Under the pieces are notes generated by a model, which searched no databases, was not told the DNA's origin, and saw nothing but the letters and a program-made list of their open reading frames with translations. Shown here one piece after another: positions 5,506 to 42,405 of a DNA stretch of 64,000 nucleotides. Every line of letters begins with the position of its first letter. Within the stretch, counting starts at the first letter, position 1. A program made the translations under genes and the position numbers. Source of the DNA: Segetibacter sp. GTDB taxonomy: Bacteria > Bacteroidota > Bacteroidia > Chitinophagales > Chitinophagaceae. The stretch is from positions 2,396 through 66,395 of the forward strand of contig NZ_JAOQAH010000030.1 in NCBI RefSeq assembly GCF_025963695.1. The letters run 5' to 3'.

Positions 5506-6477
5506 CTAGCCAATAGCTGTTTTATATATCCCAATAATTCTGTGTGCAATAGTCTCTGAATCTAAGCCTAGACTCAAAATCCTTTGCTTTCCCTTAGTTC
5601 TCCCATTTGTCTTTGAAAAGTGTAGAGCGCACTCTATTTTTTTTGCAAAATCATCCACATCAAAACTAGATACATAACAACCTTCTGTATCCCCCAAAAC
5701 CCATTTTACATCTCCCATATCTGTCGCAACAATCGGGCAATTGCATGCCATGGCTTCTTTTACCACATTAGGTGAACCTTCCATTAAAGATGGAACTACA
5801 AGAACACTTGCGTTGCTTAAATATTTTGGTATTTCTTCATGCGCAACAGGATAGGGATTTATAAGTTCAACATTAGGCAAACGTAATTTTGAAACAGCAG
5901 CTTCTGCCAGTGGATAATTTTTTCTAATATCGTTTTTGTTTCCCAGAAATAAGACGCTTTCTTTTTCGTTTATTACACTTGAACTTTCATTTCCGACAAC
6001 TCTTTCTGCATCGAACTTTTGCTTGTTAATTCCGTTAGGAATAATCCAAGACTTATGCTTTAGATATACATATTTTTCTATGTTCTTAGACTTAGAAATA
6101 ATTGCTTTTACAAAAGGCTGTATCAGCAAAGTACAAAAAGTAGAGATTCTGCTACTTAAACGAACTTTGTTTACACCAATGTACTCGCCGTAGGCATCAT
6201 TGCCCAATAGTGATAAGACAACAGGTGTTTTACCAGCGCCTATTACTGCTGCCCACCCGGAATAAGTAAAGTGGGCATGAATGAGATCATACTTATTTTT
6301 CTTCCGATGTTTTCTAATTTGCATACCCGCCTTCAAGTAGCCTAAGAAGCCCTTACCAACGACCGGGAAATAATCTACTATAATTCCTTGTTCTTTCAAC
6401 GACTCGCCTTGTTCCTTGATAAAAGGAATAATCTCAAAGCTTTTAATATTACCACCACACACAAAAAGTACTCTCAT
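5506..6477 (-). CDS. Glycosyltransferase family 4
   Basis: YDLIHAHF, IIPNGIN, VPSLMEGSPNVVKEAMACNCPIVATDMG (EX7E). Start taken at MRVLFV. Confidence 0.9.
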   Translation of the reverse strand: MRVLFVCGGNIKSFEIIPFIKEQGESLKEQGIIVDYFPVVGKGFLGYLKAGMQIRKHRKKNKYDLIHAHFTYSGWAAVIGAGKTPVVLSLLGNDAYGEYIGVNKVRLSSRISTFCTLLIQPFVKAIISKSKNIEKYVYLKHKSWIIPNGINKQKFDAERVVGNESSSVINEKESVLFLGNKNDIRKNYPLAEAAVSKLRLPNVELINPYPVAHEEIPKYLSNASVLVVPSLMEGSPNVVKEAMACNCPIVATDMGDVKWVLGDTEGCYVSSFDVDDFAKKIECALHFSKTNGRTKGKQRILSLGLDSETIAHRIIGIYKTAIG

Positions 6478-6582
6478 AATTAAATATTGAATTTTTAAAA
6501 AGAAACTTCGCCTCATTTTAGACATGATAATACCGCACGTATACGAGGAGGGTCGGAAGCGACATAAATCACACTTTGGATT

Positions 6583-8469
6583 TTATAATACCGCTAATAC
6601 CGAGGGAACACTTTTATTTATCTTATTGGTCAACAGCAGAGTGCTAATTATTAAAATAAGTTCTTTTTCTTTATTACCAAAGCGCGTATGTTCATCAACG
6701 AGGTGTAAAATTGCTCCCCTATCAAATATTTTCCAGAAGAATTGGTTATCATTTCTTATAAGCCATTCTTTAATATCGCTCGAACTCTTTCTAATATACT
6801 CTTTTGATGGGCCGTGAAAAGCCAGCTTCTTACGGTTGATCATTTCTTCAGGAAGGTAGTCGCGGGCGAAGGCTTTATGTATAATCTTACCATTCCTAAA
6901 ACTATATCGATATTCCCTCGGCAGTGATTCGATAAATTCTACCAATTCATTGTCAAGCATAGGAACACGGCATTCTAAGCCGAAATGCATTGTAATTTTA
7001 TCAGTATAGTTTAAAAGCGTTTCGGAGAGTTTTGTTCTCGTATCAAGATATGGAAAGAGGTCGCTACGATAAAGCGGAAGATTATTTTTACTTTTTAAAA
7101 CAGCATAATGATTACCTAGAGCGGAGTAGTATTTTGAAGACACTACTTCAACTTCATTTTTATTCATTAGCTTATTTAAAGCATGCTCTCCGAAAAGGCT
7201 ATTGAATTCAAAATAAGCATGTAGGTTACTTGAGGTTCCTACTGAAGAAAAAACTCGGCGTAAATCACGGTGTTTGATATATTTAGAACAAAACCGGAAA
7301 AGACGGGGTAAAATAGGAGCTTTAATTAAAAAATCAATAGCGGGCAAAGCTTTATACTTAGTGTAGCCGCCCAAAGGTTCATCCGCACCTTGACCACTCA
7401 AAACTACCTTTACTTTTGAAGCAGCTAATTTAGACAACGTGTACATTGGAAATATAGAACCCGTATCTGCCGGCTCTTCTATGATGTTTACAATGTGCTC
7501 AAACTCTTCAAAGAAATTACCAAACTTTACTTCTTCTGTATAATGCTCTAATTTAAGGTAAGCAGCAGTTTTACTTGCGCTTCCCCGCTCATCGAGTAAT
7601 TTATCGTCAAAGCCAACCGTGAAGCCTTTAATATTTTCCACTTTTGTTTTTGCAATAGCAGCTATAAGCGAAGAGTCAACACCTCCACTAAGAAAAATGC
7701 CGACTTCAACATCCGAAAGTAATTGTCTTTCCACAGCCTTTTCAAGAAGTTGTCCATACTCAACAACCAATTGTTTTTTAGTGCCATTAATCAATCCTTT
7801 CTTCTTTGGCAAATCAGCATAATAGCTTCTCGAAATTGAAAGTGTATCATTTAAATCAATGGTAATTAGTTGCCCTGGCTCAACCTTAAATATATCCTTT
7901 AACAATGTCTGGGGCGGGGGGACATGTCGAAATTGAAGGGCAGTTGTAACTGCACCAATAGAATACCGCGGCTCTACTTCGCTTATAATAGTTCTTAGCT
8001 CTGAAGAGAAGAGAAATTCATTATCCTTGAAGTAATAATACAAAGGCTTTACGCCGAAACGGTCTCGTGCCAGGTAAATCTTCTTGTCGATAATATCTAC
8101 ATAGGCAAAACTGAAAATCCCGTTAAGTCTTGCCAATGAATTAGGGGTACACTCATTGCGACAAAAATTTACAAGAGTTTCTGTATCAGAATGACCTTTA
8201 AAATGCACGTTGCTAAGAGTACTGCGAAGCTGGACGTGATTATAGATTTCGCCATTAAAAATAATGACCCCCTGTTCATCCGACGACATCATTGGCTGGC
8301 TCCCATTGCTGCTTAAATCCAATATTGACAGACGGTGATGAAATAATTGAACCGAACAAGAGTCAATCCTAAACTTTTTCAGACCGAATTCATCTGGACC
8401 ACGGTGGCGGATAAGCTGAACTACTTTATTAGATAAATTATGATTTATACTACCAACTATTCCGCACAT
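6583..8469 (-). CDS. asnB: Asparagine synthase (glutamine-hydrolysing)-like amidotransferase
   Basis: N-terminal MCGIVG (Ntn Cys), HRGPD, RLSILDLS, FNGEIYNH, ARDRFGVKPLYY, LSGGVDSS, LSGQGADE, ECRVPMLD. Confidence 0.93.
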   Translation of the reverse strand: MCGIVGSINHNLSNKVVQLIRHRGPDEFGLKKFRIDSCSVQLFHHRLSILDLSSNGSQPMMSSDEQGVIIFNGEIYNHVQLRSTLSNVHFKGHSDTETLVNFCRNECTPNSLARLNGIFSFAYVDIIDKKIYLARDRFGVKPLYYYFKDNEFLFSSELRTIISEVEPRYSIGAVTTALQFRHVPPPQTLLKDIFKVEPGQLITIDLNDTLSISRSYYADLPKKKGLINGTKKQLVVEYGQLLEKAVERQLLSDVEVGIFLSGGVDSSLIAAIAKTKVENIKGFTVGFDDKLLDERGSASKTAAYLKLEHYTEEVKFGNFFEEFEHIVNIIEEPADTGSIFPMYTLSKLAASKVKVVLSGQGADEPLGGYTKYKALPAIDFLIKAPILPRLFRFCSKYIKHRDLRRVFSSVGTSSNLHAYFEFNSLFGEHALNKLMNKNEVEVVSSKYYSALGNHYAVLKSKNNLPLYRSDLFPYLDTRTKLSETLLNYTDKITMHFGLECRVPMLDNELVEFIESLPREYRYSFRNGKIIHKAFARDYLPEEMINRKKLAFHGPSKEYIRKSSSDIKEWLIRNDNQFFWKIFDRGAILHLVDEHTRFGNKEKELILIISTLLLTNKINKSVPSVLAVL

Positions 8470-38420: not shown

Positions 38421-39710
38421 CTATAATACATGTTGCTGTCTCATCGGTAGTACAATAATAAAGTTCGAACCTTTGCCTTCGGTGCTTTTTGCAATAATAC
38501 TACCGTTATGCTTTTCTATAATCCTTTTGGTAATAGCGAGCCCAATTCCTGTGCCTTCGTATTTATCTTTTGTGTGTAGCCTTTTAAATAGGGTAAAGAC
38601 GTTCGACATATATTTCTCATCGAAGCCAATACCGTTGTCTTTTATATTTATGCAGGCGTAGGGGCCTGCTGTGTCTGGCGAACTATCATAAACACTATCA
38701 CAAATCCTCGAAGCGGAAATGGTTATAATGGGACTAACGCCAGGCCTTGAAAACTTCAATGCATTACTAATAACGTTTTGAAATACCTGCCTTATTTGTC
38801 CAGGGTTTACTTCTATAACCGGAATCTCTTCAATAGTTATCGTAGCTTTCTTTTCTTCAATTATTAATTCAAAATCTTTCAACAACTCTGCAATCAGCAG
38901 TTTTAAATCTGTAAGCTCAAACTTATTGTCTTTATCCGATAAACGCGAGAATGAAAGAATATCGTGTATAAGCACCCTCATTCTTTCTGATGAACTAATG
39001 ATTTTTTGCAAGTAAGTACCCGCAGAAGCCGAAAACTGGGCAGCATGTTTTTCCTTTAAAAGATTTGAGTAAATCTGAATTTTACGCAATGGTTCCTGCA
39101 AATCATGGGAAGCTACAGAAGCAAATTGTTGAAGATCGTGGTTGCTGATTTCGAGAGCGTGGTTAATCTCTTCGAGTTGTTGATTATTTAGCTTCAATTG
39201 TCTCTGCGTCTCTTTTTGCTCTGTGAGATCTGTGAGAATAATGCTTAATGATACACCTTCGTCCAATTCGAGGGTTGTAAAGGATAGTTGAAATTCTACG
39301 TATCGCTGCTGATTAATTAAAGAAATTTCGCCCTTGCAATCCTGCCCCCAACCCCTTTTAAAAAGTGCATTGAACTGATCAACAAAAGCCGGAGCAATGA
39401 AATTAGAGAACGGAAGGCCGAGCACTTTTGACATCGGCAGGTTCAACATTGAGGCAAATTGGGTGTTGCTGTAAACAATAATTCCCTCGCGGTTTAAGGT
39501 AACTGCTCCCTCATTCATCTTTTCGATGAAGAGGCGATAAGTTTGGTCGGCTGTTTTTAAAGTATACAATTCGTGCCCCTTTTCTCCAAGTACCACAAGC
39601 GCATCAACCCGGCCGGTCCTAATGGCATCAATTGTATCGTTTGCCTCCTCAAGCTGCTGACGCAGATCTGTTACTTCATTTAAAAGTTCTTCGTAAGTTT
39701 TTGCTTTCAT
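38421..39710 (-). CDS. PAS-domain sensor histidine kinase of the kai operon
   Basis: N-terminal coil IDAIRTGRVDALVV, PAS (MNEGAVTLNREGIIVYSN), H-box ASHDLQEPLRKI, N-box NVISNALKF, DNGIGF, GTGIGLAI. Confidence 0.92.
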   Translation of the reverse strand: MKAKTYEELLNEVTDLRQQLEEANDTIDAIRTGRVDALVVLGEKGHELYTLKTADQTYRLFIEKMNEGAVTLNREGIIVYSNTQFASMLNLPMSKVLGLPFSNFIAPAFVDQFNALFKRGWGQDCKGEISLINQQRYVEFQLSFTTLELDEGVSLSIILTDLTEQKETQRQLKLNNQQLEEINHALEISNHDLQQFASVASHDLQEPLRKIQIYSNLLKEKHAAQFSASAGTYLQKIISSSERMRVLIHDILSFSRLSDKDNKFELTDLKLLIAELLKDFELIIEEKKATITIEEIPVIEVNPGQIRQVFQNVISNALKFSRPGVSPIITISASRICDSVYDSSPDTAGPYACINIKDNGIGFDEKYMSNVFTLFKRLHTKDKYEGTGIGLAITKRIIEKHNGSIIAKSTEGKGSNFIIVLPMRQQHVL

Positions 39711-39716
39711 CTGCAA

Positions 39717-40034
39717 CTATACATTGATACCTAAACCCCGAAGAACCCTGTTTGTATCAGACATGTCGCCAATAAGTCTTCTCTCGGGTAAAGGCAATGT
39801 TTTAATAAGAAGGGGTAGCGCGATTAGTTGTTTCGTTTCAGCTATGTCCTTTTGTTGGTACACATCAATAATGTCCAAAGTATATCTTCCTTTAATATGG
39901 GTTTCGCAAATTTGTTTCAAATTGGTTATAGCCCTTACAGAATTGGAAGAAGCTCCAATAACATATAAGCGAAGTACAAACTCTATTTGTTCTTCATTAT
40001 TTTTTTCTAACTCTTCGGGTTCTTCGCTGGCCAT
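39717..40034 (-). CDS. kaiB: KaiB-family protein (divergent paralogue)
   Basis: FVLRLYVIGASSNSVRAITNL..ICE, LDIIDV, ALPLLIKTLPLPERRLIGDMS. Confidence 0.9.
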   Translation of the reverse strand: MASEEPEELEKNNEEQIEFVLRLYVIGASSNSVRAITNLKQICETHIKGRYTLDIIDVYQQKDIAETKQLIALPLLIKTLPLPERRLIGDMSDTNRVLRGLGINV

Positions 40035-40035
40035 A

Positions 40036-40323
40036 CTATTGTTTTGCAGGACGGATGTTCAAGCCAACCAAAACCTTTTCTTCATTAGATAGGTCGCCTA
40101 TTATTTTACGTATCGGTTCAGGAACTTTTTTTACTAATGTGGGTATAGCAAATATCTGGTCACCTTCAGCTAATTGAGGTTGTACCAGCAAGTCTATGAC
40201 CTCAATAACATATTTACCTTTCAGATGCTCTTCACACAATTTATTGAGGTTACTTATTGCCGCTACCGATTTAGATGTTTTACCGGCCACATATAACCTT
40301 AATTCGTATTTTTCTTCGTTCAT
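40036..40323 (-). CDS. kaiB: KaiB-family protein (canonical-like)
   Basis: [57 protein letters not shown] 40323 preferred (ORF extends to 40365, inside kaiC). Confidence 0.93.
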
Positions 40324-40333
40324 CGACTCCGTT

Positions 40334-42040
40334 TTACTTTCCGGATCCGTTACTATTTCCATCATGCCTTTTTTTAATTAATTCTTCGCGATTCTTTTCC
40401 ATTACCTCTTTTCTCAATTCTTCTTCTATATAGCTTTTATTCAGCTCATCAGTCACTGATTCAAATTCTTCTTTCAGACTTTCTATTTTAGCCTGCAACA
40501 CATTTCTCTTCCTTTCTATTTCCTTGTCCTTTCTTGTTACTGCATGTGTTCGCAATACAACCCCTGTTTCCTCCATCAATTGTTGAGCCTCCCTTGCAGA
40601 TCCTGTTAAAACGCCTTCAGGTCCCAGGTAAACATCAACCAGTTGTACCCCGTCGTCGGAGATTACAAATTCACGCACCTGGTTAGAATGACGCATTCCC
40701 CTAGATTTCATAATATACATTCCGCGGTTTCTCTCGCCGTTATTTTCAATATCCCGTACCAGTAGCCACGCATCTACCAGGGATGATACGCCTTCGTCCG
40801 TTTGTTCGTTAACAACGGTATTTAAGGTTAATGCTGTAAACATTACGGTAACCTGTTCTGCCTGTAAAAAATCTATCAGCCTTATCAACATTCCTTTTAC
40901 TTCGCTTACAGACCCCACAGTAATCAGGTTCGTTATGGGATCAAGTATGATGGCGGACGGCTTAAATCTTTTAACCATTTTATGAATAGTCAAAAGGTGC
41001 ATCTCCAGGCCATTTAAAGTTGGTCTCGACGCATTGAATTGAAGGTATCCATTATCAATATGCTGTTGTAGATCGATACCAATGGAACGCATATTCCTTA
41101 TAATCTGCTGCGGCGATTCTTCGAAGGCAAAGTAAAGGCACCGTTCTTTTCGCTTACTGGTTTCATTAGCGAAATATGCAGCAATACTGGTCTTTCCTGT
41201 ACCAGCAGTACCAGATACCAGAATACTGCTTCCCCTAAAGAAACCACGCCCTTCTAGCATTTGGTCCAGCGACTCTACGCCAGATGAAACTCTTTCCGAA
41301 GAAACAGGATGTTCAAGTCTAAGCGCAGTAATAGGCAATACTGAAATTCCCTGCTCATCTATTAAAAATGGGTATTCATTAGTTCCATGAACTGATCCCC
41401 TATATTTCACAATTCTTAAAAGCCTGGTTGAGATCTGGTTAATAACGCGATGATCCAATAAAATTACACAGTCAGAAACATACTCTTCAAGTCCCTGCCT
41501 TGTAAGGAAACCTTCACCTTTTTCGCCGGTGATGATAGCCGTAACACCTTTTTCTTTAAGCCATTGAAACAATCTTCGCAGCTCTGCACGCAATATTGCC
41601 ATGTTTGATAAGCCTGTAAACAAGTTCTCAATCGTATCCAACACAACGCGTTTTGCTTTTATGCTGTCAATAGCATACCCGAGTCTTATAAACAGTCCAT
41701 CCAAATCATACTCGCCCGTTTCTTCTATTTCGCTTCGCTCAACATGTACGTAATCCACTTTAATTTTTTTATCCCTTTGTAGCCTGTCAAGGTCAAAACC
41801 CAGCGATGCAACGTTTATAGCTAATTCCTCTGCTTTCTCTTCAAAAGCCATAAAAACACCTGGCTCATCAAATTCTAACGCACCTTTCACAATAAACTCA
41901 AGCGAAAACAATGTTTTTCCGCACCCTGCCGCACCACAAATAAGGGTAGGTCTGCCAGTAGGTAGCCCTCCACCTGTTATTTCATCTAACCCGGCTATTC
42001 CACTTCGTGTTTTGGAAAGAGACTTTTTAAGTTGTTCCAT
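40334..42040 (-). CDS. kaiC: Double-domain KaiC ATPase/autokinase with a long C-terminal coiled coil
   Basis: [17 protein letters not shown]; [18 protein letters not shown]; predicted phospho-site segment GVSSLVDAW; helical tail [20 protein letters not shown]. Confidence 0.95.
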
Positions 42041-42259
42041 ATTTTCTTTTAGGTAAAACATTTATTTAACTTGTAGCCACTGGCAACATAAAAAATATCA
42101 TGCCTTTACTGCCCCCGTACTTGATGTGAAATAGGTTTGCAACTTAAATTAAGGTGGCAAGTATAAATAAAACCGACGTCTTCAACCAAGTTTCTCTACA
42201 CAATAGCTGCTATTTCTCTTTTGGAATATTTTCTGGTTACCAGCACAAGTTTTTCATTG

Positions 42260-42288
42260 TCATCATTGTTGCGTCGCACACTTGTACC
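42260..42288 (-). repeat. Dispersed mini-hairpin repeat, copy B
   Basis: GGTACAAGTGTGCGACGCAACAATGATGA; identical (29/29) to copy C. Confidence 0.85.
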
Positions 42289-42405
42289 TGCAGAATTAAA
42301 ATCAGCACAAGTATTACTTACTTGTAATGACAGTAATAAAGACCATCTAAATTTGTGAGAAGGGAATTGCTTCGTTCTTGAAATGGAGGAAGCATAATGC
42401 CGGCA

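Follow-up and report, generated by a model that had tools for sequence, protein, structure and literature searches.

A KaiA-independent KaiC cassette in Segetibacter with two KaiB paralogues, one of them predicted to adopt the fold-switched form

A 64,000-nucleotide stretch of a Segetibacter sp. genome (Bacteroidota, Chitinophagaceae; contig NZ_JAOQAH010000030.1, positions 2,396 to 66,395; hereafter the window, in whose coordinates positions are given) carries four adjacent minus-strand genes, namely kaiC, kaiB-1, kaiB-2, and a gene for a PAS domain-containing histidine kinase. We interpret this locus as a KaiA-independent KaiC "hourglass" cassette of the Rhodobacter sphaeroides type, the regulatory part of which consists of two specialised KaiB paralogues. 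Both KaiBs appear to be old and differently specialised: one looks metamorphic, and the other looks naturally locked in the fold that binds KaiC. A previous interpretation made from the letters and their translations (the sequence-only reading) had proposed that KaiB-2 is one half of a split SasA-like adaptor, bridging KaiC to the kinase in trans, and that KaiB-1 is the fold-switching regulator, both competing for the KaiC CI ring. The strings which it quoted from the two KaiBs, the acidic N-terminal extension of KaiB-2, the 6-nucleotide gap before the kinase ATG, and the coil ahead of the PAS domain are all present in the sequence.

The kaiC gene (42061-40334, minus strand) encodes a 575-residue protein of the KaiC2 (R. 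sphaeroides) type that has two RecA-like domains, carries a Ser-Ser pair as phosphosite, and ends in a coiled-coil tail. It scores 745.7 bits with NCBIfam model NF006799 (cut-off 408) and matches the Pfam KaiC ATPase domain twice. Comparison with R. sphaeroides KaiC (KaiC-RS, 8DBA) using phmmer gave 638.6 bits over residues 15-552, a region that takes in both the Ser-Ser site and the tail; in this alignment, the phosphosite segment VSSLVDAW is paired with LSSLMDGW. This is the single double-domain KaiC in the whole genome, and kaiB-1 and kaiB-2 are its only KaiB genes. No match to the KaiA family (PF07688) was found in this 97%-complete genome, the Synechococcus elongatus genome used as a control being detected. 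To our knowledge, the timer of R. sphaeroides is the only KaiA-free Kai timer that has been reconstituted. The cassette resembles the KaiBC hourglass of that organism (8DBA, 8FWI, and 8FWJ; PMC10076222) in the Ser-Ser site and coiled-coil tail (a 538-residue KaiC match) and in the absence of KaiA. However, the R. sphaeroides system as published has one KaiB, whereas in the operon described here a KaiB from another old clade and a kinase with a coil plus PAS (coil+PAS) N-terminus are fixed. The text of Pitsawong et al. (2023) contains no mention of an operon or of a histidine kinase, and the system was reconstituted with one KaiB (PMC10076222). According to Schmelling et al., only KaiB2- and KaiC2-like proteins are encoded in Bacteroidetes.

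The first KaiB is closely related to its R. sphaeroides counterpart. The longest kaiB-1 open reading frame (ORF; 40365-40036, minus strand, 109 residues) shares 32 nucleotides with the end of kaiC, and an internal ATG at 40323, 10 nucleotides past the kaiC stop, would give a protein of 95 residues. Since KaiB-1 orthologues have 97-101 residues, the true start is probably the ATG at 40323 and not that at 40365. KaiB-1 reads ...AIPTLVKK...IGDLSN... and matches the Pfam KaiB family (PF07689) with 97.1 bits (gathering score 27). Its best match in the PDB, and its closest relative among solved structures, is KaiB-RS (8FWJ, 100.1 bits). Conversely, 8FWJ scores 120.1 bits with a profile of the KaiB-1 clade versus 98.2 bits with a KaiB-2 profile, and KaiB-RS groups with the position-1 KaiBs in a phylogenetic tree. 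Of the cassette proteins, KaiB-1 has also evolved most slowly (p-distance 0.13, vs. 0.29 for KaiB-2). Judged by profile and tree, KaiB-1 is thus the counterpart of the metamorphic KaiB of R. sphaeroides, a relationship that fits its proposed role as a fold-switching regulator.

The second KaiB gene (kaiB-2, 40034-39717, minus strand) follows the kaiB-1 stop after a 1-nucleotide spacer (junction 40034-40038) and encodes 105 residues. KaiB-2 shares 49% identity with KaiB-1 and matches PF07689 with 79.6 bits over profile positions 1-81/82, the gathering score being again 27. It reads ...VIGASSNSVRA...ALPLLIKT...IGDMSD... and ends just past a GLG motif (...RGLGINV). Residues 1-18 form an acidic, disordered N-terminal extension, MASEEPEELEKNNEEQIE; across 61 orthologues, the median extension is 18 residues long, the median net charge is -3, and 79% of the extensions carry a negative charge. 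KaiB-1 had been described as canonical-like and KaiB-2 as divergent. The differences between them are real, but the resemblance to cyanobacterial KaiB (AGNTPNSVRAL) at the "NS.R" motif lies with KaiB-2 and not with KaiB-1. Neither protein falls in the cyanobacterial clock KaiB equivalog as defined by model cut-offs: KaiB-1 and KaiB-2 reach 100 and 87.2 bits with TIGR02654 (cut-off 145.3) and 104.1 and 87.3 bits with NF006798 (cut-off 110), respectively.

KaiB-2 does not look like a SasA domain either. The SasA model NF006800/PRK09303 (cut-off 342 bits) gave 30.3 bits for KaiB-2, 27.9 bits for KaiB-1, and 87.7 bits for the kinase, the last of which is lower than the scores of the kinase with many unrelated kinase models. 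A KaiB-2 profile, and only this one, matched the N-terminal domain of SasA, marginally (E = 0.005-0.009). Thus, by its profile scores (87 bits with KaiB models and 30 bits with the SasA model), KaiB-2 is a genuine KaiB and contains no SasA-type domain.

To place both proteins, a tree was built from position-1 and position-2 KaiBs, single KaiBs, PDB sequences, and approximately 100 representatives from a 1.84-billion-protein library. Position-2 KaiBs grouped with many sequences from elsewhere, in a tree that has few columns and weak resolution. The approximately unbiased test rejected a single Bacteroidia clade of position-1 and position-2 KaiBs (difference in log-likelihood 112, P = 0.00015), and position-1 KaiBs as one clade were not rejected. 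In addition, Legionella pneumophila Lpp1115 (4KUN) scored 95.8 bits with the KaiB-2 clade profile versus 72.0 bits with the KaiB-1 profile. These results place KaiB-2, at the level of sequence, in an old second KaiB clade and reject a duplication restricted to Bacteroidia. The signatures of this clade include DVYQQ, Arg at position 23, Lys or Arg at position 88, and Gly at position 91 (T. elongatus numbering, used below with the prefix Te); the most general one is D-[VI]-Y-Q-Q, which immediately follows strand 2. On the other hand, the two clades have the same residue, conserved at 80% or more, in approximately 30 columns, among them P70-x-P72-x-R74..I77-G78-D79-x-S81 and surface residues of helix 1.

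The difference between the two clades extends to the predicted folds. According to the AF-Cluster study, shallow clade-specific alignments make AlphaFold2 report the KaiB state which is favored (PMC10808063). Following the same logic, we ran AlphaFold2 for each protein on an alignment of its own positional orthologues only (58 and 61 sequences). The KaiB-1 model had the order strand-helix-strand-(short strand)-helix-helix-strand, which is the ground-state topology, with a predicted local distance difference test score (pLDDT) of 65.5, and its top 17 Foldseek matches in the PDB were all ground-state KaiB crystals. The KaiB-2 model had the beta-alpha-beta-alpha-beta-beta-alpha order of the fold-switched topology (pLDDT 79.1); pLDDT was 85-89 over most of the switching half and dropped to 65 at residues 61-70. 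Its top Foldseek matches were 4KUN, fold-switch-stabilised KaiB (5JYT, 5JWR, and 5JWO), KaiC-bound KaiB-RS (8FWJ_M), and KaiB-TV4 of Thermosynechococcus vestitus (8UBH), a natural KaiB in the fold-switched state; SasA N-domains and thioredoxins followed at lower ranks. The first-ranked match, 4KUN, was aligned over 89 of 90 columns with a template modelling (TM) score of 0.83 (on target) and a root-mean-square deviation of 1.9 A, at only ~42% identity in the Foldseek alignment. Lpp1115 was crystallised in the fold-switched, thioredoxin-like form (PMC10808063). KaiB-2 is thus predicted to sit in the thioredoxin-like fold, and it may be permanently locked in this shape, the one that binds KaiC.

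The sequences lend support of their own, in that several clade-specific residues lie at positions that are known to influence the fold. Mutations reported to lock KaiB in the switched fold are I88A and G89A with D91R (G88A;D90R in S. elongatus numbering; bioRxiv 10.1101/2020.06.17.158394; PMC9478674). Te I88 is replaced by Val in 100% of KaiB-1 sequences and by Lys or Arg in KaiB-2, and Te D91 is Asn in KaiB-1 and Gly in KaiB-2. The C-terminus also differs: a conserved IRPAK tail is present in the KaiB-1 clade, and the KaiB-2 clade stops just past GLG. Among 87 KaiB-2-type representatives (one per 50%-identity cluster), Ala occurs at Te89 in 14 and at Te88 in 10, and Gly occurs at Te91 in 44. 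The Arg at Te23 is kept in KaiB-2, and Ala or Thr is found there in KaiB-1 and KaiB-RS; the corresponding S. elongatus residue, R22, contributes to ring cooperativity (bioRxiv 10.1101/2020.06.17.158394).

The pairing of these two proteins is a conserved feature of the operon. A scan of species-representative genomes revealed 416 loci with a relative of KaiB-2, and the counts for related loci below refer to the best 80 of the 416, which come from Chitinophagaceae, Spirosomataceae, and Sphingobacteriaceae. The order kaiC-kaiB1-kaiB2-sensor was found in 79 of these 80 loci, kaiB-2 is linked to kaiC in all 80, and a sensor or kinase gene directly follows kaiB-2 in all 79 loci that extend far enough. 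Genomes of the genus Segetibacter that have any KaiB mostly have two side by side. In a sample of 401 genomes from the phylum, tandem KaiB pairs are the rule in the class to which the window belongs and single KaiBs are found in other classes. Of 12 tandem loci drawn from this sample, the 11 that have both flanks all show kaiC-kaiB-kaiB-sensor, and in the remaining one (L030) the contig ends before kaiC is reached.

Considering these data together, we propose the following mechanism. KaiB-1 would rest in the ground-state fold and bind the CI ring of KaiC after switching to the thioredoxin-like one; once bound, it would speed up ATP hydrolysis and dephosphorylation of KaiC, as KaiB-RS does. KaiB-2, from an older sister clade to which Lpp1115 would also belong, would by its sequence always favor the thioredoxin-like fold that is competent for binding. 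It might occupy CI sites beside KaiB-1 and either seed or sharpen the recruitment of KaiB-1 or cap it by competition. In the cyanobacterial system, the thioredoxin domain of SasA and KaiB variants locked in this fold each bring KaiB to KaiC cooperatively and compete with it at higher dose (bioRxiv 10.1101/2020.06.17.158394), and the ring action proposed here is modelled on theirs. The co-transcribed kinase would then read the surface of the mixed KaiB ring on KaiC through its coil+PAS N-terminus. The pseudo-receiver domain of CikA reportedly binds fold-switched KaiB (Tseng et al., 2017). KidA and CikA offer a precedent for a signalling protein that reads the clock through an N-terminal sensor-type domain on fold-switched KaiB, and in KidA it is the PAS domains that bind (PMC9478674). 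Unlike the kinase here, whose gene is part of the cassette, KidA is a GGDEF-EAL protein with multiple PAS domains and has its gene at another place in the genome, and the two are likened by analogy.

The conserved gene order, the age of the two clades, their affinities to solved structures, their different predicted folds, and a natural KaiB-1::KaiB-2 fusion described below are results of the analysis; from these we infer that KaiC is bound by KaiB-2, that KaiB-2 cooperates or competes on the ring, and that the KaiB ring serves as the docking site of the kinase. The mechanism as a whole, in which KaiB-1 switches, KaiB-2 is always binding-competent on a shared CI ring and seeds or competes, and the kinase reads the loaded ring via its coil+PAS module, has in our view about an even chance of being correct. 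The competition for the CI ring proposed in the sequence-only reading, or a sharing of that ring, is plausible because the two KaiBs are non-equivalent and KaiB-2 is predicted in a fold like that of the SasA N-domain. A more detailed version, in which KaiA-free timers of this type have a three-protein core (KaiC2, metamorphic KaiB-1, and fold-locked KaiB-2) and not the two-protein "KaiBC," the two KaiBs form a mixed (possibly alternating 3+3) ring on KaiC CI, and KaiB-2 is both the seed and the docking partner of the sensor kinase, i.e., a two-piece SasA, seems unlikely to hold in full.

Several observations weigh against the proposed mechanism. The use of AlphaFold2 on fold-switching proteins is contested, and the two models may echo the nearest structures in the training set (4KUN on one side and ground-state crystals on the other), so the predicted folds are not independent of the evidence from sequence affinity; the confidence of the KaiB-1 model is low as well (pLDDT 65.5). 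KaiB-2 of Bacteroidia keeps G89, and positions 88 and 91 vary in KaiB-2-type proteins outside Bacteroidia, so fold-locking may be lineage-specific or partial. Variants with a single KaiB also exist in both directions: in L034 there is no KaiB-2, and in L106 (kaiC-kaiB2-kinase) there is no KaiB-1, indicating that neither KaiB is indispensable everywhere. L106, from Arcticibacter svalbardensis (5868-7959), is the sole locus of the 80 without kaiB-1, and a 115-nucleotide gap lies between its kaiC and kaiB-2. No kaiB relics were detected in this gap (kaiB-1) or in a 240-nucleotide gap of L034 (kaiB-2), both being clean absences. Finally, the Legionella KaiB reportedly showed no detectable interaction with its KaiC (Loza-Correa et al., 2014), which would count against CI binding if it held across the clade.

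The tolerated loss of either KaiB in at least one lineage each is also what might be expected if the two proteins were redundant or dosage-partitioned duplicates, both switching fold and both binding CI, with differences that reflect neutral drift. Both are indeed full-length domains with a conserved core. However, two distinct clades have been maintained since before Bacteroidia diverged, 16 positions are conserved inside each clade but different between them, and the clades differ in predicted fold and in evolutionary rate. The gene order is fixed as well, and nearly all two-domain KaiB ORFs among the representatives have the KaiB-1-type domain first and the KaiB-2-type domain second. Redundancy is therefore highly improbable.

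Some of these two-domain ORFs represent a true fusion. A KaiB-1::KaiB-2 protein of 247 residues with a linker of approximately 35 residues (cluster P0241/P0392) is found, exactly the same, on three contigs of ~61% GC from independent metagenome samples (L123:712-1455, L124:29-772, and L125:615-1358). On L123, the fusion gene lies directly upstream of a separate coil-PAS-GAF kinase, which has the same coil+PAS N-terminus, and then a receiver gene. A partial gene upstream of the fusion on that contig does not encode a recognisable KaiC. The other two-domain ORFs of 206-314 residues, many of them singletons with frameshift-like junk between the domains, were rejected, and only P0241/P0392 was counted as real. 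In the manner of a Rosetta stone, this fusion ties KaiB-2 to KaiB-1.

The fusion is also relevant to the possibility that KaiB-2 has a role off KaiC, in stress or signalling, as a protein with a thioredoxin fold similar to Lpp1115 that perhaps modulates the kinase or another partner directly, its place in the operon serving co-expression. KaiB-2 is nearest to Lpp1115 both by profile, with a difference of 24 bits over the KaiB-1 profile, and by predicted structure, and it has evolved about twice as fast as KaiB-1. The Legionella kai operon has moreover been linked to stress response and not to circadian rhythm (PMC10808063). On the other hand, the ~30 columns common to both KaiB clades suggest a common partner, the linkage of kaiB-2 to kaiC holds in 80 of 80 loci, and the KaiB-1::KaiB-2 fusion, together with a singleton KaiC::KaiB-type ORF, points to one complex. 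This ORF (P0391, 689 residues, from Logan/ENA) scores 119 bits with the KaiB-2 profile and 110 bits with the KaiB-1 profile, and it is possibly a read-through artefact. We therefore consider a role off KaiC quite improbable.

The kinase gene, which extends to 38421 on the minus strand, may start at an in-frame TTG (39716), which directly abuts the kaiB-2 stop codon (TAG, 39719-39717; junction 39708-39719), or at the ATG at 39710, 6 nucleotides after the stop, giving 431 or 429 residues, respectively. The protein is soluble and consists of an N-terminal helix, a AIRTGRVDALVV motif, a PAS domain (PAS_9, residues 69-166), HisKA (195-260), and HATPase_c (306-426); the domain search detected no receiver domain within it. 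The module before the PAS core (39543-39710) comprises approximately 56 residues, in which a heptad-like helix is followed by IDAIRTGRVDALVV; DTIDAIRTGRVDALVV likewise lies in this N-terminus, before the PAS domain. Within the kinase, the N-terminal module shows the highest conservation (p-distance 0.33, vs. 0.43 for the PAS domain and 0.46 for the kinase core), and no paralogue of it was found in the genome. It is also retained despite changes of the output part, as it occurs in histidine kinase, PAS-PAS-histidine kinase, HD-GYP, and GAF-histidine kinase variants. For example, in L036 (3839-5011), from another class of the same phylum, kaiC and a single KaiB-1-type KaiB are followed by the coil+PAS N-terminus with an HD-GYP (HD_5) output, which implies that a Kai-linked input module has been combined with different outputs. 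These features make the N-terminal module a candidate Kai-coupling element.

The same features would suit the split SasA arrangement, in which KaiB-2 constitutively binds the N-terminus of the kinase and docks the kinase on KaiC CI in trans and KaiB-1 alone regulates KaiC. The arrangement is further favored by the position of kaiB-2 directly upstream of the sensor in all 79 loci, by L106, which retains KaiB-2 and the kinase after the loss of KaiB-1, by the marginal match to the SasA N-domain that is unique to the KaiB-2 profile, and by the precedent of PAS domains of KidA binding fold-switched KaiB. The predicted fold of KaiB-2 is moreover that of the N-domain of SasA, a non-switching thioredoxin-like mimic of KaiB that occupies the KaiB site on KaiC CI (1T4Y and 6X61, from Synechococcus/Thermosynechococcus) and that the model matches weakly (Foldseek E = 3e-4 to 1.5e-3). 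However, the SasA score of KaiB-2 (30 bits vs. the cut-off of 342) is near that of KaiB-1, and in SasA the KaiB-like domain is fused to a HisKA-HATPase kinase without coil+PAS input, whereas KaiB-2 and a kinase with coil+PAS are encoded by separate genes here and in 79 of 79 loci.

A search for natural fusions of KaiB-2 and the kinase, suggested in the sequence-only reading as a check, returned no credible case. The 120 closest homologues found with the kinase N-terminus, all but two of which have 409-440 residues, include none with a KaiB domain, and no kinase fusion was found among 134 candidates of 294-934 residues that share words with KaiB-2 in a 5.8-billion-cluster collection, the one match in that size range being a KaiC::KaiB protein. 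A protein of 269 residues with a KaiB-2-type domain and coil+PAS (P0309) was rejected as an artefact or the product of a decaying locus, because it is a singleton and its contig (L122) has a frameshifted kaiC and a fragmented kinase region. The genuine fusion instead joins KaiB-1 and KaiB-2, the kinase being encoded separately, and the same sensor N-terminus follows a single KaiB-1-type KaiB in L034 and L036. Mirror-tree analysis against the kinase N-terminus, controlled for KaiC (67 loci and the window), gave a partial r of 0.52 for KaiB-1 and 0.52 for KaiB-2 and thus does not discriminate between them. The abutment of kaiB-2 and the kinase gene is real but not special to that pair, considering the 1-nucleotide spacer between kaiB-1 and kaiB-2. 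In 79 related loci, both the kaiB-1/kaiB-2 and the kaiB-2/sensor junctions are typically -4, -1, or +1 nucleotides, and the tight abutment is thus a property of the whole operon. On the genomic evidence, nothing ties KaiB-2 specifically to the kinase; the arguments offered for binding fall away, although binding itself may occur. What stands of the split adaptor is the non-equivalence of the two KaiBs and the SasA-like predicted fold of KaiB-2, and we regard the arrangement itself as doubtful.

We found no paper describing a conserved tandem of a ground-state-type and a fold-switched-type KaiB, in a literature search that omits most subscription journals and is therefore weak evidence of novelty. 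Wayment-Steele et al. (2023) report that KaiBs in the fold-switched state form pockets within the KaiB tree and that one genome may have as many as four KaiB copies, and the passages of this survey that were searched describe no such tandem in one operon (PMC10808063). If one KaiB is indeed metamorphic and the other naturally locked, models of the hourglass timer would need a second KaiB species as ring seed or competitor. Nature would then already have run the "fold-locked KaiB" experiment that was done with engineered mutants in the cyanobacterial field, and the KaiB pair would be a natural system for studying how sequence sets the balance between ground and fold-switched states. For the output route used by Kai systems outside cyanobacteria, the conserved coil+PAS kinase module is a concrete candidate.

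With regard to expression of the cassette, a scan for sigma-70 promoters and terminators gave no more matches than shuffled sequence, and the Bacteroidota TAnnTTTG box was found neither upstream of kaiC nor inside the operon. The lack of internal promoter signals fits a single transcription unit, short of proof. When transcript evidence was sought, only soil-metagenome DNA runs, and no RNA runs, contained the sequence. The intergenic region upstream of kaiC (42069-42325) contains the hexamer ACAAGT/ACTTGT five times in 344 nucleotides, including an inverted pair at 42307-42325, a count reached in 0 of 2000 shuffles. A conserved operator was considered and rejected, as the hexamer is absent upstream of kaiC in 75 related loci; by this comparison the cluster is a local feature.

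No receiver or response-regulator gene lies beside the cassette in the window, and the genome has only receiver paralogues at 35-40% identity. In 24 of 79 related loci, a stand-alone CheY-like receiver of approximately 130-145 residues lies downstream of the kinase (e.g., L050:7599-7997), and in 15 of 75 one lies upstream of kaiC (e.g., L055:3360-3797); such a flanking receiver is a candidate for the cognate partner to the kinase. The kinase of L106 is present as two overlapping ORFs, reflecting a frameshift or a sequencing error. Two metagenome-assembled genomes labelled Janthinobacterium lividum and Williamsia sp. (L064 and L116) carry a typical Bacteroidia cassette with KaiC 76-81% identical to that of the window, and these contigs are probably mis-binned.

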